A stretch of DNA of 64,000 bases, taken from positions 17,335 through 81,334 of the forward strand of contig CAISEW010000041.1 of assembly GCA_903884455.1 (NCBI GenBank), written 5' to 3'. The notes beneath the pieces are model-generated. The model worked only from the letters and a program-made list of their open reading frames with translations, made no database searches and was not told where the DNA came from. This stretch comes from an uncultured Chloroflexota bacterium. Its GTDB lineage: Bacteria > Chloroflexota > Dehalococcoidia > GIF9 > AB-539-J10. Shown piece after piece: positions 16,137 through 32,685 of this stretch. Each line of letters begins with the position of its first letter. Position 1 is the stretch's first letter. The position numbers were made by a program, and so were the translations under genes.

Positions 16137-16177
16137 GACAAAACCTCTTTGTCTCTTTAGAACACCTGTGCCATAAT
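16137..16177 (+). promoter_or_regulatory. sigma70 promoter with LexA-like box, upstream of the terminase operon
   Basis: -35 TTGTCT (16149), 17-bp spacer, -10 CATAAT (16172); AGAAC-ACCT-GTGCC at 16159-16172; 26/35 ungapped identity to 27414-27448. Confidence 0.65.
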
Positions 16178-16222
16178 TTAGCTTCGCTAAATGGGTAATA
16201 AGGGTTCAATAAGGAAAGTAGA

Positions 16223-16369
16223 TTGAGTTTGAAGCTATTGCCGGCGGCTCTTCAGAGGCAAGATTACAACCTGGCAGCTCATGTTCTCGTCTATGGCTTG
16301 GTCAAAGCCTCGGTAGAAAACCCCAAAAAGTGTTATGGCAGCAAAAGGAAAAGGCCAGAGAAAGAGTAG
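16223..16369 (+). CDS. small hypothetical protein (48 aa), first gene of the terminase operon
   Basis: TTG start after AAGGAAAG; MSLKLLPAALQRQDYNLAAHVLVYGLVKASVENPKKCYGSKRKRPEKE*; overlaps the next gene; below the ORF-track cutoff. Confidence 0.5.
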   Translation: MSLKLLPAALQRQDYNLAAHVLVYGLVKASVENPKKCYGSKRKRPEKE

Positions 16370-16691
16370 CCCACGGGGTTTCTATAGCCGGGCCTTGGAC
16401 GAGGCAGAAAAGCTCGAGCTGGAAGAAGCTTCTCATGTCGAAGGAATCGACGAGGAGATTGCCCTTCTCAGAGTAAAGCTCAGGGAACTTCTGGAAGAGC
16501 AGCCAGAGCGAATCGACCTGCACTTCGAGGCTGCCAATATCATAGCCCGGCTGGTAAGAACCCGATATCAAATTACCAAAGAGCAAAAGAAGTCCCTCAA
16601 GGAAGCCATCCAGAAAGTCTTGACCGAAGTCGCTATGCCCCTGGGGGTTGGGGTGGGCGGAAAAATCCTAAGCACTAAATCCCGAAATTAA
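16335..16691 (+). CDS. putative terminase small subunit
   Basis: Basic N-terminus, then GFYS..L...E....IDEEIALLR helical pattern; directly upstream of TerL. Confidence 0.6.
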   Translation: MAAKGKGQRKSSPRGFYSRALDEAEKLELEEASHVEGIDEEIALLRVKLRELLEEQPERIDLHFEAANIIARLVRTRYQITKEQKKSLKEAIQKVLTEVAMPLGVGVGGKILSTKSRN

Positions 16692-16759
16692 TAGTCAGTA
16701 GTCAGTAGATTCCTCTACTGGCTACTGGATTCTGTATTCTTGTTACTACCACTATTTTT
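16688..16759. repeat. heptamer-built palindromic element (AGTAGTC/AGAATTC...CTACTG), copy 1
   Basis: taatagtcagtagtcagtag...ctactggattctgtattcttgttactacc; near-identical inverted copy at 21371-21455; relatives at 31405-31480 and 32686-32746. Confidence 0.75.
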
Positions 16760-18161
16760 ATGGAACTAAGACCTTATCAAATGGAAGTAGCGCGGGCGGC
16801 TATGGACTCTATCCAGAAGGGAATGGGACTGACCTTTTCTGTGGAGATTGCTAGGCAAGGCGGCAAAAACGAGCTTTCAGCGCATCTGGAAATTCTGCTG
16901 TTAACGCTCTATATGGCTAAGGGAGGCAATCTTATAAAGTGCTCCCCGACCTTTAAGCCTCAAACCATTATATCTATAGAAAGGTTAAAGCAGAGGCTGG
17001 ATGATTTCGGTTTTGCCGGCATTTATCGTCTCCAGATGGGCTATATTGTTCAGCTCGGCAACGCTAAAGCCATCTTTCTATCGGCTGAGGGCTCGTCTTC
17101 AGTGGTGGGACACACCCGCTGACATACTTCTGGAGATTGATGAATCGCAAGATATTAGCAAGGAAAAGTACACCAGGGAATTCCGCCCCATGGGTTCCGC
17201 TACCAACGTGACTACGATTCTTTATGGCACTACCTGGGATGATAGCACCTTGCTGGAAGAGGTAAAGCAGGCTAATCTGGAACTGGAAAGAGAGGACGGC
17301 ATTAAGCGCCACTTTAGATATGATTGGCAGGAGGTAGGCCGGTACAATCCTGACTATGTCAAGTTCGTCCAGGCGGAGCGGCAAAGACTGGGTGAAGAGC
17401 ATCCCCTGTTCAGGACTCAATATGCTTTATTACCTATCACCCATGGCGGGGGCTTCCTATCACGGCAACAGATAGCTCTGGTGCTGGGAGAACACCACAG
17501 GCAATCGCAGCCTGAGGGGAAGAGGACTTATATTGCTGGTGTAGATTTGGCCGGAGAACATGAGCCGGAAATGACAGGGGAAGACGCTCCTGACAATAAT
17601 AGGGGAAAAGGATGTGATTCCACAGTAATCACCATTGCCGAGGTGGATGCCCGCCTGCCAAGCCTTGGCGGGCAGGCCACCAATCCATCACAGCCACTGT
17701 TGAAAGTTGTGGAGCAATACCGGTGGACGGGAACGCCCCATAGCCAACTTTTTACCCAGATGACGGATATCCTTAAGAACGTCTGGAACTGCCGCAGGAT
17801 AGTGGTGGACGCCACCGGCATTGGTCAGCCTGTAGCTAGCTTTCTCAGAAAGGAACTGGGAAGCCGGATCATCCCATTTGTCATTACCTCCAAAAGCAAA
17901 TCCGACATGGGCTTTGAGCTATTGTCCTTTATCAATTCCGGGAGGCTTAAACTCTACAAGCAGGATGGCTCCAGGGAGTATAAGGAGACCCTGTTTGAGC
18001 TAGAAAGAGCCAGGGTGCAATATCGCCCCAACCAAACGATGAACTTTTATGTTGACCCTCAAGAGGGGCATGATGATCTTCTCGTGAGTCTGGCTCTGGT
18101 GATCCAGGCCGCTAAAGGTCTTAGCCCCCGGGGAGCCAAAGGTTGGCTCCGGGAAAGCTAG
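16760..18161 (+). CDS. terL: terminase large subunit (one apparent extra base at about 17115-17117)
   Basis: LRPYQ adenine motif, ARQGGKN Walker A, LLEIDE Walker B, YGTT coupling motif, RNase H-like nuclease IAGVDLA..DATGIG..HDDLL; removing one C from ACCCGCT joins the two ORFs (GHT-ADILLEIDE). Confidence 0.85.
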
Positions 18162-18186
18162 GCAGGGGTCGGGCTTGCCCCCGGCT

Positions 18187-19365
18187 TCATTCCAATTTAG
18201 GCAAGTCTTTGCCTAGCTCAGCCAGGGATTCAATCCTCTTCTTAGTTTCTTCTAATTGTCCCTTATGTTCATGGGCAAACTGCGTAGCTTGCTCGTAAAA
18301 CTCTTTTATCCTGGGCACAAAGGCTAACTGGGATAATATCAAGGTAACGTCGATGTAGTGCTTTTCTCCGGGAAAATCGCCGCCGCGAATCAGGGCGGTG
18401 GGTGCCAGTTCCTTGATGTAATCGCTAATGTTCTTGACCATGTCCATATTCAGATCTTTTTCCGGACCAGATATGATATATATAGCTTTGCCGGCATCCT
18501 TAGGGCTACAAGTAAGGGAAAGGTCAGAGATGGTGGCGTCTAGGGCTTGTGTCCCCCTGAAGCTTTCCAGAGCTTTGTCGCGGAAAGTCTTCTTCCTTAT
18601 CTCCCAGGGAAAACGGAATGAAGGAAGCTCAGTTCTCCCCAGGCCAATGGTGGTCCATCCCTCTAGGCTGGCAATTATGTCCCCGGCGTCTATCGTCCGC
18701 GAACCTACGTATTTGGCCTTGGTTACCTCACCGGCGCACATTAAATCATAGAAGGGCTCGGCAATCATCCTGTTTATTATATCTATGTTACTAACGAGAC
18801 TGGCATCTTTTCTCACATACCTCTGGTTATCCGCGAGAAAAACGGCATCCACTAAGTCATAAGTGGATTTCAGGCAAGTGGCGGTGTTATATGTGCTCCT
18901 GGACTCTGTGGTCTGCTCGTGCTCAAAAGGCAAAACTATCAGGGCATAAACTGGCTTGCCAATATATCTATCCTTAACTGCCTTGGCTATTATGGGTAGC
19001 GCTCCCGACCCTGTGCCGCCGGCAGCGCCAGCCATGAGAAGAAAACCATGTGTCTCGTAAAACTGTGAACTAGCTTTCACGGCATCCAGTACCTTATCAC
19101 CGTCCTCCTTAGCCAATTGAGCTCCTAGCTCGTTTATCTTGCCTACCCCGTGTCCCAGGGTCTGGCGCAAGCCCAGGAGCACCCGGTGCGTGTAGTCGTT
19201 CTTGATAAACCTTAGTCCGGTCAAATCAGCCTGATCTGTATTCACGGCAATGACGACGGGGGCTATGGTGGCCTTGCGCTGAGCATGCGCCTTGAGATTT
19301 AGCCTGGCAAAGTGGTCAGCAATCCGGCATCCACACTGCCCCAGTCCAATAACTGTTAGCTTCAT
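18187..19365 (-). CDS. tubulin/FtsZ superfamily GTPase, CetZ-like
   Basis: MKLTVIGLGQCG, AVNTDQADL, GHGVG..NELGA, AGGTGSG, CAGEV..IDAGDII; closely parallels archaeal CetZ and lacks the FtsZ C-terminal linker/peptide. Confidence 0.85.
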   Translation of the reverse strand: MKLTVIGLGQCGCRIADHFARLNLKAHAQRKATIAPVVIAVNTDQADLTGLRFIKNDYTHRVLLGLRQTLGHGVGKINELGAQLAKEDGDKVLDAVKASSQFYETHGFLLMAGAAGGTGSGALPIIAKAVKDRYIGKPVYALIVLPFEHEQTTESRSTYNTATCLKSTYDLVDAVFLADNQRYVRKDASLVSNIDIINRMIAEPFYDLMCAGEVTKAKYVGSRTIDAGDIIASLEGWTTIGLGRTELPSFRFPWEIRKKTFRDKALESFRGTQALDATISDLSLTCSPKDAGKAIYIISGPEKDLNMDMVKNISDYIKELAPTALIRGGDFPGEKHYIDVTLILSQLAFVPRIKEFYEQATQFAHEHKGQLEETKKRIESLAELGKDLPKLE

Positions 19366-19407
19366 TTTTCCCTCCTTCTTTCTTTACCGTTGTTTACCCT
19401 CTTGTTG

Positions 19408-19558
19408 GTCATTGCGAGCGGAGCGAATGCGGAGCGCGGCAATCTCCTTCCCCCGTAGCCCCTCCGAGATTGCTTCGTCGCCCCGATGAATCGAGGCTCC
19501 TCGCAATGACAAAGGGGAGGGTATTGCTTCGGCTGACGGAGTCAGCCTCGCAATGACA
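19408..19558. repeat. cluster of 3 TGTCATTGCGA..GCAATC palindromic elements
   Basis: Copies at 19408-19446 (+), 19466-19511 (-), 19523-19558 (-). Confidence 0.9.
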
Positions 19559-19589
19559 GGAAGGGACCGTGCCTGGCAATGGCGCTCCT

Positions 19590-21152
19590 TTAGTAGTAGT
19601 AATGTGTTCTTCTCCTTATTACGAAAAAGTAAACCAGGGCGCCGATGAGCACCACTATTGCGACTATGCTGGCAATGAATACCCATAGGGGCAGGAGTCC
19701 AGCATGTAAGGAACGGGCTGCGGTCCAGTTGCCTGCGTTCTCTGCTCTATCTACGGCTTGCACAATCCAGTAGTAGGTGCCATAAGGCAGGGCTTCTGTC
19801 GCATTCAAGGTATAGTTCGTTCCGACTATGTCCGGAACTGAAACTATGGGGTCAGCAAATCCTTCAGTGGTGATGTTGGCACTGGTCGCTATCTGCAGGC
19901 TATAGCGAACTCCACTGGGATCGGATACCGCCGACCATTCAAATGTCGGCCTCACCTTGCCTATGAATCCCACGCGGCTTCCGTCGGCTGGCGATTTGAG
20001 TTCCGGCACAGGTGGAGGGACTGATTCCATGGTGAAGTTGGCGGTGGCGTTGTTCCCGGCAGTATCGCCGGCTGTTACCGGGCGCTCGCCGTGTTGACTT
20101 TCAGGCACGGCAAAACTTGCCTCAAAGTTGCCGTTGTCGTTGGTTTCGGCTGTCGCTTTCTGGCTACCATCGTACTTTATGGACACATCTTCGGTGGCGG
20201 CAAATCCGCGACCGGTGACGGTCAGGTTTGTGCCCACGTGTCCTTCGTCAGGAGACAGCACGATGCCAGGCTCTATCTTGAAGCTGAGTGCAGTGATGGC
20301 GGCTTTTGGAGTCGATTCTCCGTAGGCAGTCACGTTATACGTGCCTTTGGGCATTTCGGGCACCTCGAAGCTTTTTTCCCAGTAACCTTCGTCGTCAGCA
20401 TCAACCCTGATTTCTGTCCCCACTTCCTCTCCTGCAAATAATATCCTGATGTACCTGTCGTTAGCATAAAATCCGTTGCCTGTCATAGTTATGTTGTCGC
20501 CTACGGTGCCCGATGATTTATCCAGGCTTATCCCCGGCGTTACTTCGAAGGTGGCATCCTTGACTTGATAGAAGCTGCTGCTGGCACCCTGGGCGTCTAT
20601 TTTATGGTTTCCCGTGGTGGAAGGAGGAATTTGGAAACTCCGCTGCCAATTGCCCGTGGCATTCGCCGTGATATTCCCTGGTATCGGTGCATAGCCGGTG
20701 CTATTGAGGTAATACCTCAGCTCGATGCCTGTTTCATTCTTGGCAAATCCATGGCCTTGCACGGTAACATTAGTGCCCACAGGACCTTTGGCAGGACTTA
20801 TTGTCAGCCCCGGCTTCACGGTAAAGTTTTCCGTAGCTTGAGGGGTAGTGTCTATATCAGCACGCACTTCGTGTGCGCCTTTGCAGCTTTCGGGAACGGT
20901 GAAGGTGACATTGAAGCTTCCCGTACTGGTGGTCTGGACATCTATCATCCAGTCCCCGGCATAGTAAATATCAACCCACTTACGAGCCGTAAAGTTATAG
21001 CCATAGACGGTAACCTCTGTTCCGGGCACTCCGTCACCGGGGTCGAGCGTGATAGAAGGTCCTATGCCATCGGCTTGTGCAGGCGTAGCCGGCAGGGCCA
21101 TAGCTACAAGGCAAACGATGAAAACAACCAGTAACCGAGATAGCACACGCAT
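19590..21152 (-). CDS. surface protein with Ig-like (IPT/TIG-type) repeats and C-terminal TM anchor
   Basis: Signal peptide (AQA); four G-x-x-G-T-x-V-T-V-x-G-x-x-F repeats; FN3-like GTYYWIVQAVD; TM helix then RRR. Confidence 0.8.
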   Translation of the reverse strand: MRVLSRLLVVFIVCLVAMALPATPAQADGIGPSITLDPGDGVPGTEVTVYGYNFTARKWVDIYYAGDWMIDVQTTSTGSFNVTFTVPESCKGAHEVRADIDTTPQATENFTVKPGLTISPAKGPVGTNVTVQGHGFAKNETGIELRYYLNSTGYAPIPGNITANATGNWQRSFQIPPSTTGNHKIDAQGASSSFYQVKDATFEVTPGISLDKSSGTVGDNITMTGNGFYANDRYIRILFAGEEVGTEIRVDADDEGYWEKSFEVPEMPKGTYNVTAYGESTPKAAITALSFKIEPGIVLSPDEGHVGTNLTVTGRGFAATEDVSIKYDGSQKATAETNDNGNFEASFAVPESQHGERPVTAGDTAGNNATANFTMESVPPPVPELKSPADGSRVGFIGKVRPTFEWSAVSDPSGVRYSLQIATSANITTEGFADPIVSVPDIVGTNYTLNATEALPYGTYYWIVQAVDRAENAGNWTAARSLHAGLLPLWVFIASIVAIVVLIGALVYFFVIRRRTHYYY

Positions 21153-21234
21153 TTAACTCACCTCCCTTTTGCTATTATAAACGAAAATGACCAGAAAAAG
21201 TAAGTAGTCTTGACTATTTTGGGACAAATTTGTT

Positions 21235-21319
21235 GAGATTGCTTCGGCTGATTTCATCAGCCTCGCAATGACAGGAAGGGAATGTCATTGCGAGCACCTG
21301 AAAGGTGCGTGGCAATCCC
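21235..21319. repeat. pair of TGTCATTGCGA..GCAATC elements
   Basis: 21235-21273 (-) and 21283-21319 (+). Confidence 0.9.
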
Positions 21320-21370
21320 CACAGTTAAATTCCAAAATCCAAACTCCAAACAAATCCCTTCAAAATGCAA

Positions 21371-21455
21371 AAATAGCGGTAGTAACAAGAATACAGAATC
21401 CAGTAGGGAAATCTTCTGAATACTGAATTCTGACTACTGGCTACTGACTATTACT
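21371..21455. repeat. heptamer-built palindromic element, inverted copy of 16688-16759
   Basis: Reverse complement shares taatagtcagtag.cagtag and ctactggattctgtattcttgttactacc.ctattt with copy 1. Confidence 0.75.
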
Positions 21456-23013
21456 AGTAGTAGTATCTTCTCCTTATTACCAAAGCGCGAATCAAAGCGC
21501 CGAGAAGCACCGCTATTGCCACTATGATGAGAATGAATGCCCACATAGGCAAGAGTCCAGCACGGAAAGAGTGAGCCGCAGTCCAGCCTCTTTCGTTCCC
21601 TGCGCCGTCTACGGCTTGCACAATCCAGTAGTAAGTGCCATCAGGCAGGGCATCTGTCGCATTCAGGGTGTAGTTCGTCCCGACTATGTCCGCAACTGAA
21701 ACTATGGGGTGAGCGAATTCTCCGGTGGTGGTGACGTTGGCACTGGTTGCTATCTGCAGGCTATAGTGAACTCCACTGTCATCGGATACTGCTGACCAAC
21801 TGAACGTCGGCGTCACCTTGCCCATGAGTCCCGCCCAACCTCCGTTGGATGGTGAAATGAGTGTTGGTATGTCCGGAGGATGTGATTCCATGATGAGGAT
21901 AGCAGTGGCATTATTCCCCCCAACATCCGTGGCTATTATTTGGCGCTCACCATGTGGGCTCTCAGGCACGACAAAGATTGCCTCAAAGCTGCCTGTGTCG
22001 TTGGTCGTGGCTGTTGCTTTCTGGTTACCATCGTACATTATGACCACATCTTTGTTGGCGGCGAATCCATGGCCCGTGACGGTCAAGTTCATGCCCACGT
22101 ATCCTTCGTCGGGGGGCAACACGATGTCCGGCTCTATCTTGAAGCTGAGCTCGCTGATATCTTCTTTCTTAGTCCATTCTCCCTCGGCGGCCACGCTATA
22201 CGTGCCTGCGGGCATTTCGGGCACCTCGAAGCTTCCCTCCCAGTTACCTTGAGAATCGGCTTTGATGCCTGTGACCACTGCCTCCCCATCAAACAATATC
22301 TGGATGTTCTTTTCATAAGCCACAAATCTGCTGCCCGTCATGGTTATTGCATCGCCCATGCTGCCCCATGGTTTATCTAGGCTTACCTCTGACGTTACTC
22401 TAAAAATGGCATCTTGGACCTCATAAAACTGGCTCTCAGCACCCTGGGCATCTATCTTATGTTCTCCCTTGGTGGAGGGGGGAATTGAGAAACTCGTCTC
22501 CCAACTGCCCGTGGCATTGGCTACTATACGCCTTTGTATCGTTTGGTAGTTGTCATTGAGGTAATACATCAACTCGATGCCCTGTTCATTCTGGGCAAAG
22601 CCCTGTCCTGTCACGGTAACATTAGTGCCCACAGGACCTTCGGCAAGACTTATTGTCAACCCCGGCTTCACGGCGAAGTAAGTATCTACTCTGACAGTCC
22701 CTATGTAGGTCCCTACCACAGCGAGTAATTTGTGGTCTCCCTTACAGCTTTCAGGGATGGTGAGGTGGATTGTGAAATCTCCACTGCCATCGGTCTGGCC
22801 TGTGGCTACGTGGGTCTCGTCATAATAGATGTCCACATACTTGCCGTCATCAAAGTACTGGCCAGTGACGATGATCTCTGTTCCGGGGGCTCCTGAGCCA
22901 GGGGAGAGCTGGATGGAAGGTCCTCCACACTGAGCCTGTGCGGGCACAGCTGGCAGGGTCATAGTGACAAGGCAGACGACGAGAACGATGACCAATCGAG
23001 ATAGTAAGCGCAT
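21454..23013 (-). CDS. tandem paralogue of the Ig-repeat surface protein
   Basis: Same architecture and long near-identical stretches (e.g. DIVGTNYTLNAT, YYWIVQAVD) as 19590..21152. Confidence 0.8.
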   Translation of the reverse strand: MRLLSRLVIVLVVCLVTMTLPAVPAQAQCGGPSIQLSPGSGAPGTEIIVTGQYFDDGKYVDIYYDETHVATGQTDGSGDFTIHLTIPESCKGDHKLLAVVGTYIGTVRVDTYFAVKPGLTISLAEGPVGTNVTVTGQGFAQNEQGIELMYYLNDNYQTIQRRIVANATGSWETSFSIPPSTKGEHKIDAQGAESQFYEVQDAIFRVTSEVSLDKPWGSMGDAITMTGSRFVAYEKNIQILFDGEAVVTGIKADSQGNWEGSFEVPEMPAGTYSVAAEGEWTKKEDISELSFKIEPDIVLPPDEGYVGMNLTVTGHGFAANKDVVIMYDGNQKATATTNDTGSFEAIFVVPESPHGERQIIATDVGGNNATAILIMESHPPDIPTLISPSNGGWAGLMGKVTPTFSWSAVSDDSGVHYSLQIATSANVTTTGEFAHPIVSVADIVGTNYTLNATDALPDGTYYWIVQAVDGAGNERGWTAAHSFRAGLLPMWAFILIIVAIAVLLGALIRALVIRRRYYY

Positions 23014-23093
23014 TTGACTATTCTTTCGTTATTATAACCGAAAAGTATACCAGAAAGTAAAGCGGGCTACCCCTGCCACTATGCTTTTCTATA

Positions 23094-23182
23094 TGTCATT
23101 GCGAGTCCCGATTTATCGGGACGTGGCAATCCCTGCCCCTCCGAGATTGCTTCGGCTGACTAAAGTCAGCCTCGCAATGACA
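23094..23182. repeat. pair of TGTCATTGCGA..GCAATC elements
   Basis: 23094-23132 (+) and 23143-23182 (-). Confidence 0.9.
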
Positions 23183-23209
23183 AATGGGAATACACTGAGC
23201 ATTTGTGGA

Positions 23210-23241
23210 AAAAGGGAGGGGCGGCTTTCGCCGCCCCTCTT
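23210..23241 (-). terminator. putative intrinsic terminator of the S-layer gene
   Basis: GAGGGGCGG stem with short loop; CCTTTT follows on the minus strand. Confidence 0.6.
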
Positions 23242-23290
23242 GGAAATCACCTTTACCTCTCCCTCGAAGAGAGGGTTAGGTGGGGTGTGC

Positions 23291-26200
23291 TTATACCCGA
23301 CGAGTCCTGAAGATGAGCACTATGACCACAATCACCAGAACCGCGCCGATGGCGATAACTACCCACACCCAGAATGGGGTTGCGGGAGCTGGGTGCGACG
23401 TAGCTTCGTGCGCTTGCAGTGCCGCCGCACTGTCGAAGCACAGACCGTCAATTGGATCACAGAACGCACCCTGTGCTCCTGTGGTAAAGGTGCCTATGAC
23501 GCTCGTGCTTATGACAGCACCTGCATTGTAGGCGGTCACCTGCCAGTAGTAGGTGGTGCCGTGGGTCAGCGTTCCGGTATAAGTGCAGGCTGTGGTGGTC
23601 AGGCCGGTCTTGGTTTGGAGGGGGCTGGAAAGATCAGCGTTGGCCGACAGCACCCACTTGAACGCATCAGCAGTAGCTGTCATGTGCCAGCTGAAGCCCA
23701 CATTCATTGTACCCACACCGGTGGCTCCGGGCGCAGGAGCGACAAGGTCGATCGCGGCAGCTCCCACACTGGGAGCAATTGTGACCTTCATGGGATCAGA
23801 CCACCAGCTGTGGATTACTTGACAGGTCCCAGCCTGGGTAGCTCTGACTCTCATGTAGTAGGTGGTTTCACAAGAAAGCCCTTCTCCACCCACTCCTCCC
23901 GCGACCAAGTAGCTAGTAGGGGTTTTACTGCCTTCGCGAGGAGCTGATATGGTGTCAAACACAGCGGTGAAGTCCTCGTCCAGTGCAAACTGTATTTCAT
24001 AGTGGCAGGCATCGCACAGGCCGTCCCACGTGATGCCAAACGGTGCATTGTAGCATGAGCAGGGGTCGGCTTTGATGGTCGTGTTGCCAGTAGGAGATGT
24101 CACGTCGGGAGCCTTCTTGGCATAGCAGTCCTCGAAGGTCCAGACAGCGCCATCTTCGTGATTGGACATGTCGTAGCCATATTCCGAGGCGCCCCAGGAG
24201 TCAATGGCAAAGAGCTTGCTGTTGCTATCTGGAGTCAGACAACCGCAGATCTTCAGGGCATTGGGCGTTGCCTGGAAGCCTACCTCGTAGTCAAGGCCCA
24301 CAGTCAGGTAATCCCACTCAACACACGTCGCGCACTCTATGGTTTCGGCAGGGTTGAGCGAGCGGGCCACGCCGGTCTGCCAACACGTCCAGGTGTTACA
24401 GTCAGGGGCACCGGCGTAGTCACAATACTCTCTGGTGAAGCTGGCGTAGAGGACGCCGCCGGTGGCAGCGCTGGTGTAGGGATTGCCATTAATATTGCTC
24501 AGTACCAGGCCGGTGTAGCTCAAGTCATGCCTGGCACCCGTGTCTGCCCAGTCATCGCTTGTGCCAAGGACCCAGCGGTAGATGCCGCCGTTGTAGTCGT
24601 CGCCGCCCCATCCCTCTATAGCAGCGTAGATTATATTATTGGTGTCGAAGTAGGTATCGAAAGCCACGCTGGTGTGGCCCTCAACGGGAGTCGTCGCGTC
24701 GTTGCCAGCTGCATCCTGCAGATGGGTGAAGGTCTCACCTCCATCGTCGGAGTAAGCAACCTCACCATCAAACATGCCGCCGACAAGGACATAGTCGCCA
24801 TGGACAGCGATGCTCCAACCATAAGTGTTCAGCTTGCTGTCCACCGCGTCATGCCAGCCATCAGAATCGTACATGGAAACGTCGCCATTATAATCCAGGG
24901 CATAGAGGGTATCGGCGTCTTTGGCGACCAGGTCCACGATCTCGGTTAGCGTGGTGGATGGTAAGGGGGTCCAGCAACCCAGGGTTTCCAGGTCATTCCG
25001 GTACACATTGCTGGTCCCATAGTCCACGAGATAGACGGTATCTCCGGTTGTTTCAGTCAGAGGCAGCCTGAGCAAGCCCGCTTCGGAACCATCTGTGTAT
25101 TCATACCATGTTGTGCCTGTGAGCTCGCCGCACCAGGTCCTCAGCCATTTGCCGCTGTATTCCTCAGCCTCGGGAAGGCTCGTAGCTTTGAGCCAGACGC
25201 TGTCACAGCCAGCACCCTGACGCTGCCCGTTATTAACGCTGACAAGCATCATCTTGTTGCAGTCGGGCGAGACCGCGACATCGGACAGGTAGTCGATCGC
25301 AGTGTCAACCAGGCTGAGCTGGTTCCAGGTATTGCCGCCGTCGAAAGTTACCGACCAGGCGCCCTCGTCGTAATCGAAAACGCCCTGGAGGGCGACAGCG
25401 TAAGCCTTGTCTGCGCTGACAAAGGATACCGCCATGGCGGTCTCTCCGGTGGGTGGCTTGCAAGCCTTCAGCCATCGCTGACAGCAGATATCCATGTTGT
25501 GGATGCCCGTGTTGCGATAGACCTGGACGCCCGCACAGCCGCCACCGTTATAGAGGCTGGTTCCGCTGCCTAGCACGCCGGCGATAGCCTCACCTTCGGC
25601 TATGGTACCGTAGTAGGAGACATTGGTCAGCCAGAGTTCGCCGTTCTTGACCTGCTGTACTACGGGGTCGGCGGAGTCATTGTCCACCCGCACTATCTTG
25701 CATGCGGAATAGCCCGTATTATAATCATAGTAGTTCACCCAGACCCAGAGAACTCTGGTATCGGTGCTCTTACTGTTGTAGTCGCTGGGCAGGGTCAGGC
25801 CGGCTATTGATCTGACGTCGTACGAGATACCGCTTGATAGCAGATTCTCATTGTGTAGTACGAGCACAGCGTCGATGCCCAGAGTGGACTTCGCGTTCCA
25901 GCCCGGGGTTGATAGCATACTACCGGACTGCAGGTAGATATCCGAGTAGGGCATGTTGTAGGGAACAACGGTGGTAACCAGGAGGGTCTTGTCCGTCGCA
26001 TAGCTGGGTGAGAATTCCATGAAGGTAACGCCAATCGAGGTAAAGCTGGCAGCGGTAGAGCTGCCGACGTTATCCCAGCCAGCATAGGCTGTGGCATCCT
26101 GCCAGGCACCGGCGCTCTCTCCGGTAACCGTGCAGCGGAAAAGCAGGGAGTATCCGCTCAAATCGGAGCCACCGGCGACGATATCCCGCTTGCCGGCCAC

Positions 26201-26767
26201 TTCGGGGGAGACGGCGAGGTCAGCGACTGACCCGCCTGAGGGGTTGAAGTATTTGCCGTTATCCGTAACTTCGCCGGCGTCATTGAAGGTCGTGCCGCCG
26301 TCGTTGGAGAAGTAAACACGGAGTTCAGTGGTATTAGTCCAGAAAACGACAGCCACGAAGTTGGGGTCCACCCCGTCGGTCTCGACTCGCAGCAATTGAC
26401 TTATGCTGACTGTCTTGTCTACTTTCGCCAGTGCATCGGTGAGGTCGGTCCAGGTGGCAGCGCCGTCATCGGACTTCAGCACGCGATAACTCTGATTACT
26501 CCAACTCTCATCATATCCATATACCACGGCGTAGGTCACTGCTCCTTCGGAAGCCAGGGCATAATCGATAATCGTGCTCTGTGGTGACAGGACCCAGCCG
26601 GCCATGGTGGGAGTGTCCGTCATGCTCCATTCGGCCTTTACATTATTATTGCCATTGGCGGCGCTCACCTTGTGGGCGGGTGCCGCTGTAATAAACAGAC
26701 TGAGCGCCAGTGCCGCAGCGATGAGTATATACATCGCCCTCACTGGCCACTCTCTTGATTTAATCAT
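23291..26767 (-). CDS. large BNR/Asp-box, Cys-rich cell-surface (S-layer-like) protein with C-terminal TM anchor
   Basis: Start reassigned to ATG 26767 after AAAGGAGG; signal peptide; Asp-boxes KSDDGAATW, FSNDGGTTF, TFDGGNTW, YSDDGGETF; FN3-like TTYYWQV; TM helix then FRTRRV. Confidence 0.8.
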   Translation of the reverse strand: MIKSREWPVRAMYILIAAALALSLFITAAPAHKVSAANGNNNVKAEWSMTDTPTMAGWVLSPQSTIIDYALASEGAVTYAVVYGYDESWSNQSYRVLKSDDGAATWTDLTDALAKVDKTVSISQLLRVETDGVDPNFVAVVFWTNTTELRVYFSNDGGTTFNDAGEVTDNGKYFNPSGGSVADLAVSPEVAGKRDIVAGGSDLSGYSLLFRCTVTGESAGAWQDATAYAGWDNVGSSTAASFTSIGVTFMEFSPSYATDKTLLVTTVVPYNMPYSDIYLQSGSMLSTPGWNAKSTLGIDAVLVLHNENLLSSGISYDVRSIAGLTLPSDYNSKSTDTRVLWVWVNYYDYNTGYSACKIVRVDNDSADPVVQQVKNGELWLTNVSYYGTIAEGEAIAGVLGSGTSLYNGGGCAGVQVYRNTGIHNMDICCQRWLKACKPPTGETAMAVSFVSADKAYAVALQGVFDYDEGAWSVTFDGGNTWNQLSLVDTAIDYLSDVAVSPDCNKMMLVSVNNGQRQGAGCDSVWLKATSLPEAEEYSGKWLRTWCGELTGTTWYEYTDGSEAGLLRLPLTETTGDTVYLVDYGTSNVYRNDLETLGCWTPLPSTTLTEIVDLVAKDADTLYALDYNGDVSMYDSDGWHDAVDSKLNTYGWSIAVHGDYVLVGGMFDGEVAYSDDGGETFTHLQDAAGNDATTPVEGHTSVAFDTYFDTNNIIYAAIEGWGGDDYNGGIYRWVLGTSDDWADTGARHDLSYTGLVLSNINGNPYTSAATGGVLYASFTREYCDYAGAPDCNTWTCWQTGVARSLNPAETIECATCVEWDYLTVGLDYEVGFQATPNALKICGCLTPDSNSKLFAIDSWGASEYGYDMSNHEDGAVWTFEDCYAKKAPDVTSPTGNTTIKADPCSCYNAPFGITWDGLCDACHYEIQFALDEDFTAVFDTISAPREGSKTPTSYLVAGGVGGEGLSCETTYYMRVRATQAGTCQVIHSWWSDPMKVTIAPSVGAAAIDLVAPAPGATGVGTMNVGFSWHMTATADAFKWVLSANADLSSPLQTKTGLTTTACTYTGTLTHGTTYYWQVTAYNAGAVISTSVIGTFTTGAQGAFCDPIDGLCFDSAAALQAHEATSHPAPATPFWVWVVIAIGAVLVIVVIVLIFRTRRV

Positions 26768-27206
26768 TATTTCCTCCTTTATAGGTATCCAACTTATCTT
26801 CACTCTCGCCCGAGGTCGACCCCTCAGGGCTCGAGTCATTGGAAACGTTTTTTCAGTAAACCTAGTTTTAAGCCTGCCTCATTTCAGGCTGCCCTTTTTG
26901 AGATTGCGGAGCTTGTTCCGAGTGAAACAAGGAATCTCGCTCCTCGCAATAGCTTCTTGCCCGGGCCAGGCATTGTTCTCTTCCCCTCGACTCCTCGCAA
27001 TGGCGATTCGCTTCGGGACTTTGCCATAGGCGTCACCTCCTTTCCATTTTATTGAGTAATGCCATTCTGAGGAGCCCCGATTCATCGGAGCTGGCTCAGA
27101 ATGACCGGCAAATGTCATCTAACAATATTCAATTATTAAAGTTCCAACAAAATCAAATTTCTCGCCAAAAGCCATAGTAATAGGCTTTAGGCCTACCTAA
27201 CCTTCT

Positions 27207-27301
27207 ACTTTAAACCTATATATCTATTTTGTCAATAGGTGAATTAAGAAATTTGCCAAAATAGCTTAGGTTTATTATAACCCCCAGCTTTCTTTTGTCA
27301 A
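27207..27301 (-). promoter_or_regulatory. two tandem near-consensus sigma70 promoters for the S-layer gene
   Basis: TTGACA(27235-27230)-17-TAAAGT(27212-27207) and TTGACA(27301-27296)-16-TATAAT(27279-27274). Confidence 0.7.
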
Positions 27302-27413
27302 TATGCCTCATATAGCGAGGTATAAGTGAGGCAGGGACAATCCCCCTCCTGTCATTGCGAGGCTGACTTCGTCAGCCGAAGCAATCTCGGGTCGGGATGG
27401 TTGAGGCTAACAG

Positions 27414-27459
27414 GACAAAAATTCCTTGCCCTTTTAGAACAAAGGTGCTAATTTATACT
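27414..27459 (+). promoter_or_regulatory. promoter with LexA-like box, upstream of the virion operon
   Basis: GACAAAA-N5-TTGCCC; AGAAC-AAAG-GTGCT at 27436-27449; TATACT at 27454; same spacing as 16137-16177. Confidence 0.65.
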
Positions 27460-27464
27460 CTATT

Positions 27465-27848
27465 ATGGAAAATGGATTGCTCTGGGATTTGTTGCCCGAG
27501 GAATTCCCCTACGAAGATAAAGGCTGTGAGCTCTTTTCCTCCTGTCTTAACTGCCCCTTTCCTGATTGTCTTGAAGAGGAGCCCTGGGGGAAGGAGAGAT
27601 TCTTAAAGCGCAGGCGAGCCGGGAGAATGCTGGAGTTGAAGCGGGAAGGGAAAAGCGTTAAGGAGATTGCCCGCATATTTGAGGTGAGCCCGAGAACGGT
27701 ACAGAGATGGTTGAAGGCGGTGGAAGCAGCTACCCCCTCTGTCGTTGCGAGAAGCCGAGATTCCTCGTTTCACTCGGAACCTGCTCCGCAATCCCATGGG
27801 GCTGTTGACGATGGAGATTGCCACGCACCTTTCAGGTGCTCGCAATGA
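27465..27848 (+). CDS. Cys-rich HTH regulator (sigma70 region 4-like HTH); C-terminus extended by repeat elements
   Basis: C-x5-CxxCP-x3-C, then GKSVKEIARIFEVSPRTVQRWL; residues after about 27740 and the stop codon come from palindromic elements. Confidence 0.75.
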   Translation: MENGLLWDLLPEEFPYEDKGCELFSSCLNCPFPDCLEEEPWGKERFLKRRRAGRMLELKREGKSVKEIARIFEVSPRTVQRWLKAVEAATPSVVARSRDSSFHSEPAPQSHGAVDDGDCHAPFRCSQ

Positions 27849-27927: not shown

Positions 27928-29454
27928 ATGACTGATTTTACCCCATCCCAACTAGCCCGCATGGACACCCAACGCCTGGCTAATTACCGTGCTAACCTGG
28001 ACTTTTACCAGGGCAATCACTGGCCCACGCAGTCACGTCACCGCCAGCTCGTCTTTAATTACGCCAAGGTCTCCATTGACAAGGTCACCAGCTTCCTTAT
28101 GCCGGGGCTGGGCTTTGCCTGCTACCCCAGCGGCGCCCCCTTGTCATTGCGAGGAGCGCAGCGACGAAGCAATCTCGAAAGTGAAGAGGCTCGGGTGAGA
28201 AAGGCCGAGCAGCTCCTTCGCCAGGTCTATGAGCAAAACAACCTCCAGCAGCTTGATTACGAGACGGAGATTGACACCGCCATCTTGGGCGACGGTTGCT
28301 ATAAGGTCATCTGGGATACTGGCGAGAAGCGAGTCCGTATCACCGCCCCTGATGTCTCAGGCATCTATGCCTGGTGGCTGGGAGACGATGCGTCACGAGT
28401 GTGGAGAGTCGCTTCACGCTACACCCTCACCCAGGACGAAATCCAGATGCTTTATGGTGATGTCATTGCGAGCACAGCGAAGCAATCTCAAGGGATTGCC
28501 ACGTCGCCCCGATTCATCGGAGCTCCTCGCAATGACACCCCTCTGTCATTGCGAGGCACGCCAGTGCCGAAGCAATCCCAAGGAAAGGACAGAGTCGTGG
28601 TAACCGAGCTCTGGACGGCTAAGGACTTTGAGCTTTACCTGGATAACGACCTTATACAGTCCAAGCCCAACCCCTACGGCTTCATCCCCTTTATTATCTT
28701 CCCCAACATCAAGCAGCCCAAGAAGTTCTGGGGAGAGTCGGACATTCCCATCCTTATGCAGCCTCAGCGGGAGCTTAATAGAGCCCTGAGCCAGTTATCC
28801 CGCATCCTGGAGCTTTCTGGCAATCCCATCGCCGTTCTCGAAAACATCGCCTCAGCCGAGGACATCAAGGTCCAGCCCGGCGCCCTGTGGACGATACCGG
28901 AGGACGCTAAGGCATATCTTCTGGACTTACTGCAAGGCGGTGGAGTCAGGCTTCATGTCGATTACATCGAGTTGCTATACCGCTCGTTGCACGACATCTC
29001 CGAGCTTCCAAAGGCCGCCTGGGGAGGCGCTGAGAGAGACCTCTCAGGCTCAGCTATGAGGATTGAGCTCGGTAGCCTTATCCAGAAGGTAGTCAGGAAA
29101 CGCACCATCAGGATGAACGTGTATCACCAGCGAAACGACATGATATTGAAGCTCGCTGAGAGATATATGGACGAGAACTTTGAGGGAGTAAACCACAGAG
29201 TAGTCTGGGGCCCTATCTTGCCACAGGATGCAGATAGGCAAGCCCAGACCGAGCAGCTTTTGGTCCAGGCGGGAGTCCACTCACGAAGAACCGCTATAGA
29301 CGAAATGGGAATCCAGGACCCCGATGAGGAGTTTAACAGGTGGCTAGAGGAGAGGGAGAAAATCCTGGAAATGAACAGGGAGTTTAGGGCAGCGTCCACT
29401 CGTGGCGGAGCGAGAGAGAGAGCGGTAGCCGCAGAGATGGAAGTGCCTGAGTAA
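27928..29454 (+). CDS. phage portal protein (SPP1 gp6-like) with in-frame repeat insertions
   Basis: LDFYQGNHW, LVFNYAK, ILGDG, NPYGFIPF, WGESD, LSGSA, VWGPILPQD; AAGGAGG RBS. Confidence 0.85.
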   Translation: MTDFTPSQLARMDTQRLANYRANLDFYQGNHWPTQSRHRQLVFNYAKVSIDKVTSFLMPGLGFACYPSGAPLSLRGAQRRSNLESEEARVRKAEQLLRQVYEQNNLQQLDYETEIDTAILGDGCYKVIWDTGEKRVRITAPDVSGIYAWWLGDDASRVWRVASRYTLTQDEIQMLYGDVIASTAKQSQGIATSPRFIGAPRNDTPLSLRGTPVPKQSQGKDRVVVTELWTAKDFELYLDNDLIQSKPNPYGFIPFIIFPNIKQPKKFWGESDIPILMQPQRELNRALSQLSRILELSGNPIAVLENIASAEDIKVQPGALWTIPEDAKAYLLDLLQGGGVRLHVDYIELLYRSLHDISELPKAAWGGAERDLSGSAMRIELGSLIQKVVRKRTIRMNVYHQRNDMILKLAERYMDENFEGVNHRVVWGPILPQDADRQAQTEQLLVQAGVHSRRTAIDEMGIQDPDEEFNRWLEEREKILEMNREFRAASTRGGARERAVAAEMEVPE

Positions 29455-29530
29455 TAACTCAACCCCTTGTCATTGCGAGCCCTGAGCTCGGCAAAGGGCG
29501 AAGCAATCTCAAGAGGAATAGGAGAAATGT

Positions 29531-30043
29531 ATGGAAAACGAAACTCAAGAAACCTTGGAAACTCAAGAACCCGGGAATACTGCCCCAGACCCTGAGGACT
29601 TATCAATCATCAAGGCCGAGCTTGAGGAGGGGAGGAAGGCGAAGGCCGAAATCGAGGCAGCGTTAGCCGACAGAGCTAAACGTATCACCGAGCTGGAGGC
29701 CTCGCTAAATGTAGTCTCTCAGGCCAGCGAGGCGGCGGCAGCCGAGCTCGCCGCAGTGAAGGGCGCTAGCTCGAAGGCCGTCTCTAAATACCTCGAGGCC
29801 GCCAGAGCTCTTAATTCCACCATCCCCAAAGACGTCATCTCTGGCCAGACTATTGAGGAGATAGACGCCTCTGTGGAGAAGGCGAAGGCCATCGCCAATG
29901 CCGTCAGGGCTAACCTCGAAGCTCAGGCCAAAGAGGCTAAGGTCCCGGCAGGAGCACCCACCAGAAGTGAGATATCCCTTGAGGGACTTTCCCCCCGGGA
30001 GAAGATCGCCGCTGGAATAATGTCATTGCGAGGAACGCAGTGA
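29531..30043 (+). CDS. putative capsid scaffolding protein
   Basis: Acidic Ala/Glu-rich coiled coil ending LSPREKIAAG; position between portal and capsid; last codons and stop come from a repeat element. Confidence 0.7.
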   Translation: MENETQETLETQEPGNTAPDPEDLSIIKAELEEGRKAKAEIEAALADRAKRITELEASLNVVSQASEAAAAELAAVKGASSKAVSKYLEAARALNSTIPKDVISGQTIEEIDASVEKAKAIANAVRANLEAQAKEAKVPAGAPTRSEISLEGLSPREKIAAGIMSLRGTQ

Positions 30044-30074
30044 CGAAGCAAACTCAAAAAGGAGGAACAAGCTA

Positions 30075-30305
30075 ATGCAAGACATCATCGAAATGGGAGT
30101 TTGGGCTATTATTGGAATAGCCATTCTCAGTGTGCTAGCCACGCTGTCCATCCACTTCCTGTCGCAGCGTTCGCAGCAGCACATGAACGAAACCTCCCAG
30201 TCTAACCTCTACAACCTACACTCGTTGGGCATCCAGGCCATTATCGGAGCTAACGAGATGAAGATTGTGGACGATAGCCTGCAAGACACCGAAAAGAAAA
30301 GCTAA
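30075..30305 (+). CDS. small single-TM protein between scaffold and capsid genes
   Basis: AAGGAGG RBS; N-terminal hydrophobic helix; flanked by duplicated AAAAAGGAGGAAC(A/T)AGCTA. Confidence 0.55.
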   Translation: MQDIIEMGVWAIIGIAILSVLATLSIHFLSQRSQQHMNETSQSNLYNLHSLGIQAIIGANEMKIVDDSLQDTEKKS

Positions 30306-30325
30306 AAAGGAGGAACTAGCTAGAC

Positions 30326-31398
30326 ATGACAATATCTTTAGCAGAAGCCAGTAAACTCTCGAGCGATATCCTGCTTAAAGGTATCATCGAGACAATAATC
30401 AAGGACAGCCCCATCTTAGAGAGGCTGCCCTTCATTCAAATCGTCGGCAATAGCCTTAAATACAACAGGGAGAAGACCTTGCCGACCGTTGGCTGGTATG
30501 CCCCGGTAACCGGTACCTGGACTCAGTCCGAGCCGGCTTTTGAGCAGTGCTCGGCCAGCCTGGGCGTCCTCGGCGGAGACGCCGACGTGGACAACTTTCT
30601 TAAGGCCACCCGGAGCAACATCCAGGACCTCGAGGCCGCCGTCATCGAGCAGAAGGCCAAGGCTCTCAGGCACGAGTTCGAGAACACCTTCCTTAACGGA
30701 GACTCGGGCGTCGACGCCAACCAGCCCGATGGCCTCTATAAGACCATGAAAGGCACCGCCTGGGCAGCCAGCACCGCCTATACATTAGGCCAATTTGTCG
30801 TGCCCACGGCCGGCCTCGAAAACGGATTCCGTTACGAGTGCACCACCGCCGGCACCTCAGGATCCTCAGCGCCTACCTGGCCCACCACGGAAGGGGCCAC
30901 GGTAGCCGACAACACCGCCGTCTGGACCTGCCGTTACGGCAGCCATCAGGGCTCAGGAGCCAACGGAGCCACCCTTTCCTTGACCAGCCTGGATAAGCTT
31001 ATTGACCTGGTCAGAGGCGGCAAGCCCGACTTACTCTTAATGAGCCGCCGGTCCCGCAGGAAGATTGTGACCCTGGCCAGAGCTGCGGGCACCAATCTAC
31101 TTATCGGAGAGGGCGCGCTCGGCCAGGTCGTTGAGTACTTTAACGGCATCCCTGTGGCCATCTCCGACTGGGTAAAGGATAACTACACCGTCGGCACGTC
31201 GTCCGACTGCTCTGCCATCTTCGCCTTCCAGATGGGTGAGGGGGGAGTCTGTGGACTTACAGCCCTGAGATGATTCAGGTTGAGCGTCTTGGCTCACTGG
31301 AGACTAAGGACGCCACCAGAACCAGGGTCAAGTGGTATGTATCACTGGCTCTCTTTTCCGTAGTGAAGGCTGCCATGCTGACGGGGGTGAGAGACTAA
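30326..31398 (+). CDS. HK97-fold major capsid protein (one apparent missing base at about 31260)
   Basis: IIETIIKDSPILERLPF, YNREKTLP, LGGDADVDNFL, FNGIPVAISDW; adding one C at CTTACAGC gives GLTSPEMIQVERLGSLETKDATRTRVKWYVSLALFSVVKAAMLTGVRD* ending at 31398. Confidence 0.85.
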
Positions 31399-31404
31399 CA
31401 GAAA

Positions 31405-31480
31405 GCGGGAGTCAGGAGAAAGCAGTAGTCAGTAGTCAGAATTCAGAATCTACTGGCTCCTGACTCCTGTCTACTGACCA
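31405..31480. repeat. heptamer-built palindromic element
   Basis: agcagtagtcagtagtcagaattcagaatctactggctcctgactcctgtctactgac. Confidence 0.7.
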
Positions 31481-31488
31481 GGTGAACT

Positions 31489-32079
31489 ATGAACCTAACC
31501 CAAATGAGAGCCAGGGTCCGACAGGACCTCCAGGATACTGATAGCCAGAACTACTGCTGGACGGACGACGAAATCGAAGCAGCTATCCAGAGAGTAGCAT
31601 TGGAGTATTCTCTCCATGCTCCCATCGAGCAGCAGACCGATATCGCCACCACCTACGGAAGCACCGAGCTCGATATATCAGGACTGCAAGGAGCCCTTAG
31701 AATCGAGTCCGTCGAGTTTCCCATCGGCAAGACCCCGAAATATATACAGAGGTTTGAGTACTGGGGCACCAGCCTGCACATGGAAGACCAGGGAAACGGC
31801 CAGAACGCCCGGGTGAGATGGCTAAAGAAGCACACGCTCACAACCGAGTCCACGACCATCCCAACCGAGCACGACGAAATCATTATCCTGGGGGCCACAG
31901 GCTACCTGGCTATGTCAGCGTCAGCCTATACAGTGGACAGAGCCACTATCGCTGGGCGTTACGGCACCACGAGCTACAAGGCCTGGGGTCAAGAACGCCT
32001 TGACCGCTACGACAAGCAGCTCAAGGCCGTTAGCCGTTCTAACCAAGTTGTTCGGAAGGAGCTCTATACAGATGATTGA
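31489..32079 (+). CDS. putative head-tail adaptor
   Basis: MNLTQMRARVRQDLQD..WTDDEIEAAI adaptor-like N-terminus; directly after capsid. Confidence 0.65.
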   Translation: MNLTQMRARVRQDLQDTDSQNYCWTDDEIEAAIQRVALEYSLHAPIEQQTDIATTYGSTELDISGLQGALRIESVEFPIGKTPKYIQRFEYWGTSLHMEDQGNGQNARVRWLKKHTLTTESTTIPTEHDEIIILGATGYLAMSASAYTVDRATIAGRYGTTSYKAWGQERLDRYDKQLKAVSRSNQVVRKELYTDD

Positions 32080-32281
32080 AAAAGGCATCCTACGAAGCTA
32101 CGACCCTATTAACCACAGAGCCAGCGTTCAGCTCATGGGCTCTTTGACCACCTATTTTGACAACGTCCGAGTTGCCAGGAATATCCCTTCCCTTGAAATG
32201 GTACTCGGCCGACACGTGTTTATAGCCATTCCCGAGAACAACCCCGGGAACGCCGCTATCATCGCCATTTTTGACCCGTAG
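32072..32281 (+). CDS. small beta-rich (OB-fold-like) putative spike/baseplate protein
   Basis: ATG at 32072 after AAGGAG; MIEKGILRSYDPINHRASVQL..VLGRHVFI pattern recalls the gp5/gpV N-terminal OB fold. Confidence 0.45.
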   Translation: MIEKGILRSYDPINHRASVQLMGSLTTYFDNVRVARNIPSLEMVLGRHVFIAIPENNPGNAAIIAIFDP

Positions 32282-32290
32282 CACCAAACT

Positions 32291-32327
32291 ACCCCTCTTA
32301 AATTAAGAGGGGATAGGGGAGTTATGA
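32291..32327. repeat. CCCCTCTTAA..TTAAGAGGGG palindromic element
   Basis: acccctcttaaattaagaggggataggggagttatga; relatives at 60265-60400. Confidence 0.65.
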
Positions 32328-32346
32328 CAGCGAAAAGGAGGGAAAC

Positions 32347-32685
32347 ATGAGTAAACTAACAGAAGCACTTACAAAGGAGAAAACCAAGGAGGGCCTCCCC
32401 AAAGAAGCCTTCGCCATCGTGGAAGACCCTGATGACCCCAGCACCTGGAAGCTTCCCCATCACACCAAAGCTATACTGAGAGCTCTTAAAGGCCGTCTCG
32501 ATATCGAAAAGACTGTGGACTGGGATAGAATGCCAGCAGCCATCGCCGCTCTCAGCAGAGGCGGATATCGGGGGGAGAGGGTCCAAGCCTCAGAGGAGGA
32601 CATCATCAAGGCCGCCCGTCACTTAGCGGCCCACTATGAAAAGGCCGACAAGTCCGTCCCCGACACCCTGGGCGCCCTCATTTGA
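32347..32685 (+). CDS. phage-type hypothetical protein
   Basis: AFAIVEDPDDPSTWKLPHH motif of the kind seen in phage head-region proteins; strong RBS. Confidence 0.55.
   Translation: MSKLTEALTKEKTKEGLPKEAFAIVEDPDDPSTWKLPHHTKAILRALKGRLDIEKTVDWDRMPAAIAALSRGGYRGERVQASEEDIIKAARHLAAHYEKADKSVPDTLGALI

Follow-up and report, generated by a model that had tools for sequence, protein, structure and literature searches.

Host LexA directly switches a mobile or phage-derived module in several systems, such as the colicin operons, CTX phage and phage GIL01. LexA-controlled prophages and bacteriocins are known, and the effect of LexA on alphaproteobacterial gene transfer agents (GTAs) appears to be indirect. 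The colicin, CTX and GIL01 modules are single loci on mobile elements, whereas the virion gene cluster described here consists of two dispersed operons that are chromosomally fixed and order-wide. It lies in a 64,000-nt stretch of DNA (hereafter the window; assembly GCA_903884455.1, contig CAISEW010000041.1, positions 17,335 to 81,334 of the forward strand) from an uncultured Dehalococcoidia/Dehalococcoidales metagenome-assembled genome (1.56 Mb, 63 contigs, 47.7% G+C, 99.5% complete), which is not Dehalococcoides proper, the genus whose LexA a first-pass annotation of the sequence had drawn on. The terminase operon and the portal operon of this cluster share a promoter that contains a LexA-type palindrome; comparison with SOS genes of related genomes makes it likely that host LexA represses both operons, which would thus be SOS-inducible.

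Passages of PMC3323433 give GAAC-N4-GTTC as the LexA site of Bacillus subtilis and Gram-positive bacteria. The palindrome of the window resembles this box (the "Cheo box") in its 4+4 inverted repeat, its A/T-rich 4-nt centre, its left GAAC and its placement over the -35/-10 region, and the same form is found at the lexA and recN genes of relatives; it differs in the right half, which is GTGC here (GTAC in some genera) rather than GTTC, and in that the version of this clade is longer, with a conserved outer TA (TAGnAC-N4-GTnCTA). The LexA protein of D. ethenogenes is likewise said to bind GAAC-N4-GTTC, reportedly according to a J. Bacteriol. paper of 2002. Production of RcGTA (Rhodobacter capsulatus) requires LexA, which in passages of PMC9638019 appears to act via cckA, and parts of PMC6473078 list in-silico LexA sites at GTA cluster genes for DsGTA of Dinoroseobacter shibae. 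Like the cluster studied here, both are phage-derived and have their genes at several loci, and their production is tied to LexA. In the window, however, the boxes lie directly in the terminase and portal/capsid core promoters, where LexA would be a direct repressor; moreover, the cluster belongs to a Chloroflexota genome, and packaging of host DNA is not implied. Our full-text literature searches turned up neither a description of a Dehalococcoidia GTA or of such a promoter, nor a split, order-wide Chloroflexota cluster whose two core promoters each hold a direct operator.

The two 35-mers at 16137-16171 and 27414-27448 (both on the + strand) are identical at 26/35 positions without a gap, and the likeness ends at each edge of the block. 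TTG starts at 16149 and 27426, exactly 10 nt ahead of AGAAC at 16159 and 27436, and a promoter consensus scan returned TTGTCT, a 17-bp spacer and CATAAT at site 1 (the terminase side), with TG preceding the -10 and a 9/12 match to the consensus; in these three respects (the alignment, the TTG spacing and the spacer of site 1) we obtained what the first-pass annotation had claimed. Site 2 (TTGCCC, 17 bp, TAATTT) matches the consensus at 7/12 positions, which is under the threshold of the scan, and is identified by alignment with 30 orthologous promoters. When the intergenic regions 16032-16334 (303 bp) and 27119-27464 (346 bp) were shuffled under a first-order Markov model and compared on both strands, the best ungapped 35-mer averaged 20.8 matches (standard deviation 0.98) and reached at least 26 in 2/1000 trials. 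Since a reader could compare many pairs of regions, this significance is only moderate, and the 26/35 match is suggestive rather than decisive; the decisive evidence for a shared block is its conservation in relatives.

We searched 61 related genomes (the window's own genome included) from several families of the order, and found the terminase in 41, including 24/24 from other families, the portal in 27 and the motif in 44. On the portal side, where a helix-turn-helix (HTH) gene orthologue precedes the portal in 20 distinct loci of relatives, the block GACA, 8 nt, TTG, 6 nt, TAGnACAnnnGTnCTA occurs within 160 nt upstream of the HTH gene in 18 of 21 distinct loci, counting that of the window; in L008 it lies farther upstream than that, L029 retains a partial AGAACA-N3-GTGCTA with GACA absent, and the second copy in G056 (L033) has no block in the 160 nt before its HTH gene. 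On the terminase side, a correctly oriented block was present in 19 of the 30 fetched loci. Four further genomes (G001, G024, G057, G021) have the site on the same contig just beyond the fetched stretch, and in four others (G020, G012, G022, G010) a matching site stands at the end of another contig; in G033 and G034 the contig breaks off within the terminase locus.

Thirty distinct orthologous promoters (17 terminase-side and 13 portal-side) could be aligned. GACA stands 21 nt before the box in 28/30 and TTG 9 nt before it in 25/30, and the hexamer that starts at the penultimate base of the box is TAnnnT in 29/30, the exception being CATAAT of window site 1. A 42-nt matrix built from the promoters of 28 relatives, with the own genome excluded, scored the two window sites at 53.6 and 45.7 bits in the 1.56-Mb genome; the next best position reached 18.9 bits, and the own genome therefore holds exactly two promoters within the training range of 26.1-59.6 bits. 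A promoter-like block on the minus strand of a 1.7-kb contig (C21:239-276; GACA...TTGACA...TAGAATATTTGTGCCA-ATAT), without a clear open reading frame (ORF) behind it, resembles the cluster promoters with a spacing that is off by one. Where both promoters lie on one contig, they are separated by 11.3 kb in the window, 12.4 kb in G025, 13.6 kb in G004, 18.1 kb in G042, 19.7 kb in G038, 22.5 kb in G041 and 27.9 kb in G051. Hence, over distances of ~11 to ~28 kb and with one type of promoter, the two halves appear to drift apart yet keep their promoter. Conservation upstream of orthologues, which the first-pass annotation had named as a check, is thus observed as one architecture in 30 distinct promoters, and the co-regulation of the two operons that it had proposed is well supported by the presence of the same promoter at both operon types, in the genus and in other families.

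The promoter follows a fixed plan, i.e., GACA, 8 nt, TTGnnn and a 17-bp spacer; the palindrome TAGAACAnnnGTGCTA lies in this spacer, and its final TA opens the -10. We read TTGnnn as the predicted -35 and the TA closing the box as the start of the predicted -10, the 16-bp palindrome TAGAAC-N4-GTGC(T/C)A filling the 17-bp spacer and having its last 2 nt in common with the -10 at both sites. Such an arrangement might be a matter of the promoter only, without a repressor: the block would then be an extended -10 ("TGn") and a spacer, both descended from one ancestral phage promoter whose duplication accompanied the split of the cluster. GTGC-TA does place a TG one base ahead of the -10, which the scan marked at site 1, and the two promoters are probably homologous. 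However, spacers are not normally conserved, yet TAGAACA is kept unchanged from family to family between diverging flanks; the TG is absent from the GTACTA variants that other genera have, and the left half agrees with the operators found at unrelated SOS genes. We therefore consider a promoter without a repressor improbable. By inspection, the motif was also dropped as a sigma-54 promoter (no GG at -24, wrong orientation) and as a promoter of an extracytoplasmic function (ECF) sigma factor (nothing conserved 16-17 nt after GAAC). Around the -35 of site 1, GACAA...TTGTC forms a perfect inverted repeat, but the 30 promoters do not conserve it.

The identity of the palindrome emerged from a search of the 61 genomes with the pattern TAGAACANNNGTNCTA, which gave 85 exact matches against 23 for a backwards control. 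Among the first 30 loci, 16 are terminase-side promoters and 10 portal-side promoters; the rest comprise two sites of a second related element (G017, G025), a site on contig C5 of the own genome and an intragenic one. We then considered 20 further regions with exact matches that these loci did not cover (L124 was refetched). In seven of them the box lies between the TTGACA -35 and a TATAAT-like -10 of a cassette in which an 82-83-aa DUF6504 protein directly behind the promoter is followed by a DnaE-family polymerase (checked in L137 with Pfam and NCBIfam, and assigned in the other six by the near-identical small protein), and in another seven a TTGACA promoter with a second box just downstream faces recN (confirmed in L143 by TIGR00634, 398 bits, on a truncated ORF, and assigned in the other six by the conserved promoter block only). 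Other regions represent a terminase-side promoter, a site before a 222-aa ORF and an intragenic site (one each), and three of the 20 adjoin an ORF distantly like the 118-aa ORF of the terminase operon (31-33% identity). In G044, G052 and G053 (L142-L144), a 400-411-aa TIR-domain gene lies across the recN promoter block, ~170 nt from the boxes. Moreover, in 12 relatives boxes that contain the half-site TAGAACA stand in the lexA promoter, in tandem in 8/12 (e.g., ...ACTTGTTCTA TAGAACAyTCGTTA...). An autoregulated lexA, recN and a damage-inducible polymerase cassette make up the classical LexA regulon. One half-site of these SOS-gene operators varies between GTTC, GTGC and GTAC, as it does at the cluster promoters, and the GTGC deviation itself is found in recN operators of relatives (e.g., TAGAACATCCGTGCTA); both window sites, GAAC-N4-GTGC, agree with GAAC-N4-GTTC at 7/8 core positions and are formally identical to operators of relatives' SOS genes.

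This distribution bears on the binder that the first-pass annotation had offered as an alternative, i.e., the 127-aa HTH protein of the cluster itself (27465), which would bind the palindrome at both promoters as an autoregulator, the likeness to a LexA box being coincidence or mimicry. Its gene is always first behind the portal-side copy of the motif, the protein has an HTH_23 / sigma-70 region-4-like domain, and the GTGC asymmetry is kept in 29/30 cluster promoters. The same palindrome with the same variable base stands, however, at the recN, DnaE-type polymerase cassette and lexA promoters of relatives, and a small protein with a single HTH gives no reason for a 16-bp palindrome of LexA spacing. 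G028 has lexA boxes, and terminase, portal and cluster motif were not found there; hence, the binder of the palindrome appears not to be encoded by the cluster, and we regard autoregulation by the HTH protein through this palindrome as very improbable.

To score the sites, we combined 30 distinct operators of lexA, recN and the polymerase cassette into an SOS matrix, symmetrised and with the cluster sites excluded (consensus TAGAACATATGTTCTA). Among 1,554,650 positions of the own genome, site 2 (15.70 bits) ranks 6th and site 1 (15.34 bits) 7th, and both fall in the training range of 9.6-24.2 bits, like the canonical SOS-gene operators of the clade. The own genome encodes LexA at C16:10441-11064 (TIGR00498, 166 bits against a cut-off of 110.95), and LexA was found in 57/61 genomes; five genomes of one genus (G041, G051, G055, G057, G059) have two lexA genes each above the family cut-off. 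The SOS induction by host LexA that the first-pass annotation had proposed is thus supported by comparison, and we infer LexA binding and SOS induction from it. As for the matrix check that it had suggested, the sites do score within the range of relatives' SOS operators, and the reference expected in the own genome did not stand: the perfect GAAC-N4-GTTC boxes, of which there are 34, are mostly intragenic, and none lies at lexA, recA or uvrA.

Several observations weigh against LexA control. The own lexA follows rpsT directly, without a box; recN and the DUF6504 polymerase cassette are absent from searches of the own genome (99.5% complete), and uvrA has no site of at least 9 bits with the SOS matrix there. 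Hence, the own genome offers no internal SOS reference, and its SOS regulon looks minimal. Both window sites (15.3-15.7 bits) lie below the SOS operator median of 19.4. The choice of the lexA training sites was partly circular, since lexA loci were screened for the palindrome itself with as many as 3 mismatches allowed; an unbiased pattern search of whole genomes supplied the recN and polymerase sites. NCBIfam did not separate a replicative from an error-prone type of polymerase on a 391-aa fragment. In G006, where terminase and portal are contiguous in a longer operon, there is no box in the fetched locus. A search for RNA runs that contain the stretch listed none. Finally, the right half reads GTGC in 29/30 cluster promoters and not the symmetrical GTTC; this asymmetry could come from another binder or from a second constraint, e.g., the TG of an extended -10, and the persistent G (29/30) may also mean that a weaker LexA site has been selected for. 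Taken by itself, the loose palindrome is not enriched: the own genome has 2 exact occurrences and 19 with one mismatch, against a rough expectation of ~1.5 and 44, and only context and conservation make the two sites significant.

The higher-scoring sites of the own genome include C31:79359 (intragenic), C62:905, C41:2841 (within dnaG, before an rpoD-like gene) and C48:7176, and inspection revealed no clear SOS gene at these four. The site at C62:905 is a near-perfect box (AAGAACATATGTTCTA, 20.2 bits) ~240 nt ahead of a CopG/Arc-like and PIN-like pair, named vapBC-type by eye from the translations. At the start of another contig (C5:293-1345, L002), a cro-like gene diverges from a CI-like gene (HTH_3 + Peptidase_S24), with boxes at 604-619 and 644-659. 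The regulator of the cluster might accordingly be not LexA but this CI-type repressor with a self-cleaving S24 domain (C5:713-1345), induction being RecA-dependent as in lambdoid prophages, since the two boxes between the CI-like and the cro-like gene, TAGCACAAACTTTCTA (13.0 bits) and TAGAACATTTGTCCTA (18.3 bits), share the form of those in the cluster. These boxes could, however, just as well be LexA sites that belong to another mobile element. Only one of the 60 other genomes, G026, has a true orthologue (54% identity), at a locus without a box, and the matches in 14 more genomes reach only 21-43% identity. In a switch of the CI/Cro type the repressor gene would co-occur with its operators, whereas here the orthologue in 1/60 genomes contrasts with the terminase in 41/61 and the motif in 44/61. 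Hence, the CI-like protein cannot be the general regulator, and we find its involvement highly improbable.

LexA control of both operons could proceed as follows. The 35 bp would be a promoter core used twice, for the small ORF, the 118-aa ORF and the terminase (16137-18161) and for the HTH, portal, capsid and tail genes (27414-36107), and the 16-bp palindrome would be an operator for host LexA (C16:10441-11064), a dimer of which would block RNA polymerase. DNA damage would then lead to RecA-stimulated self-cleavage of LexA and to joint derepression of the two dispersed operons. The cluster promoters differ from those of the SOS genes in their weak -35 (TTGccc or TTGtct against TTGACA) and in the conserved GACA ~12 nt upstream of it, which was unseen at the recN and polymerase-cassette promoters; for this reason GACA is taken as the site for a second, cluster-specific factor that these promoters probably need, and we infer an activator. 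A candidate is the HTH protein whose gene opens the portal operon; it may bind this cluster-specific element and would then place its own gene under positive feedback. In PMC6363796 and PMC9638019, GafA is called the direct activator of RcGTA. Like GafA, the 27465 protein is a small cluster-associated, predicted DNA-binding protein that could serve a weak promoter; we do not claim homology. The ATG on the portal side lies 10 nt beyond the -10 at 27449..27454, and across relatives the first gene usually begins 6-12 nt past the -10; hence, the mRNAs are predicted to be leaderless or nearly so.

Table 1. Features of the two promoters and of the split virion cluster, in window coordinates (position 1 is the first letter of the window).
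Feature	Position	Strand	Basis or remark
Upstream GACA element, terminase side (GACAAAA, about -47)	16137..16140	+	21 nt before box in 28/30 cluster promoters
-35 hexamer TTGTCT	16149..16154	+	Consensus scan, 17-bp spacer
LexA-type operator TAGAACACCTGTGCCA (putative), in spacer overlapping -10	16158..16173	+	15.34 bits, SOS-operator matrix; orthologous sites of relatives TAGAACAnnnGTGCTA
-10 hexamer CATAAT, TG before	16172..16177	+	Consensus scan
58-nt leader with hairpin TTTAGC-TTC-GCTAAA and Shine-Dalgarno-like AAGGAAAG	16172..16229	+	Between promoter and first gene; strain-variable
First gene of terminase operon, 48 aa (start TTG 16223 or 16229)	16223..16369	+	Conserved small ORF
118-aa ORF before terminase	16335..16691	+	Kept at 60-95% identity in 40 loci of relatives
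Large terminase, two frames (16760-17122, 17001-18161)	16760..18161	+	Terminase_6C and PHROG terminase matches
CetZ-like tubulin	18187-19365	-	Pfam Tubulin + CetZ_C
Two divergent tandem sigma-70 promoters without box, for minus-strand Ig-domain genes	27207..27301	-	TTGACA-16-TATAAT (12/12); TTGACA-17-TAAAGT
Upstream GACA element, portal side (GACAAAA)	27414..27417	+	Alignment of 30 promoters
-35 hexamer TTGCCC, weak	27426..27431	+	Alignment; unlisted by consensus scan
LexA-type operator TAGAACAAAGGTGCTA (putative)	27435..27450	+	15.70 bits; conserved before HTH orthologues
-10 hexamer TAATTT, 17 bp past -35	27449..27454	+	Same place in 11/30 promoters, all portal-side
First gene of portal operon: 127-aa Cys-rich HTH protein	27465..27848	+	Pfam HTH_23 8.3e-10; Sigma70_r4_2 4e-6
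Portal	27928-29454	+	Pfam, PHROG
Major capsid protein	30326-31273	+	Pfam, PHROG
Adaptor-like gene	31489-32079	+	Pfam, PHROG

The single mismatch of the box at site 1, CCA in place of CTA, lies at the edge of the 58-nt leader. This leader is skipped in one contig each of the sediment runs X2 and X3, and G007 carries a 96% identical leader with the TA of the box intact; G004 and G001 have a related part downstream of their portal-side promoter. By BLAST the leader occurs only once in the own genome, and Rfam returned no family at E up to 1. Short hairpin repeats (GTCATTGCGAGG...GAAGCAATC or GTCATTCTGAG...) adjoin the promoters at 27352-27392 of the window and in loci L008, L011, L034, L111 and L115, and in several relatives they sit between the promoter and the first gene.

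The terminase operon follows host genes (radical SAM, AMMECR1, MgsA, PhoU-like and a PHO4 phosphate transporter ending at 16031). Orthologues of its 48-aa first product, for which Pfam and PHROG gave no family, are found as 48-62-aa proteins directly behind the promoter in 8/10 loci examined (own included); in the remaining two the script chose another frame or returned none (one each). The 118-aa ORF, with no Pfam or PHROG family above threshold, is a possible small terminase subunit, and the 127-aa HTH protein could equally be that subunit, given its weak PHROG matches; an ESM Atlas search with the latter returned only small HTH_23 proteins of viruses and Chloroflexota. An additional letter at 17115, within the run CACACCCGC, breaks the terminase into its two frames. 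The letter is missing from one contig each of runs X2 and X3, run X1, which is probably the source sample, agrees with the window, and the terminase of relatives is mostly a single frame of about 450-560 aa; the split reflects either a frameshift particular to this strain or an error in the assembly.

Between the two halves lie minus-strand genes, i.e., the CetZ-like gene, two TIG/Ig-domain proteins, a 1182-aa protein and a 79-aa ORF. The CetZ-like product belongs to the tubulin/FtsZ superfamily and is of the archaeal CetZ type, with only 60 bits against bacterial ftsZ. The SOS matrix gave no site of at least 9 bits at the divergent promoters (27207-27301), and with no LexA-type box there the genes separating the two halves would be outside the regulon. 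The portal operon runs in one direction, tail-like genes included, over 27928..36107 (+), as judged from Pfam and PHROG matches.

The CetZ-like gene is convergent with the terminase operon in 27 loci of relatives from all families sampled (57-98% identity), PHO4 stands upstream of this operon within the genus and in G060, and the Pfam and PHROG scans of the ORFs between 11 and 43 kb returned neither an integrase nor a replication family. This fixed neighbourhood, the terminase in 24/24 genomes of other families and the lack of detected integration and replication genes lead us to read the cluster as an old, vertically inherited and probably domesticated element. Three loci (G006:C1, G021:C58, G056:C5) have terminase and portal side by side, ordered as is usual in phages; they may represent the ancestor of the cluster before it split or a true prophage related to it. 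More tentatively, and with somewhat less than even confidence, we suggest that the cluster is an ancient Dehalococcoidales particle system (GTA/tailocin-like), whose operons, 11 to ~28 kb apart (possibly ~46 kb in G053), would be held together only in trans by LexA operators and by a GACA site for its own HTH protein, and which would be the main SOS output of this genome.

We herein describe a LexA-type operator in the core promoters of two dispersed operons, in a cluster conserved across families of a streamlined Chloroflexota lineage. If confirmed, these findings would give the LexA box of the order as TAGnAC-N4-GTnCTA and would mean that separated halves of a domesticated virion cluster can stay one system via a shared operator. 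Genetic tools and known mechanisms of gene exchange are scarce in Dehalococcoidia, and DNA damage would then provide a handle for inducing and isolating particles from Dehalococcoidia enrichments.

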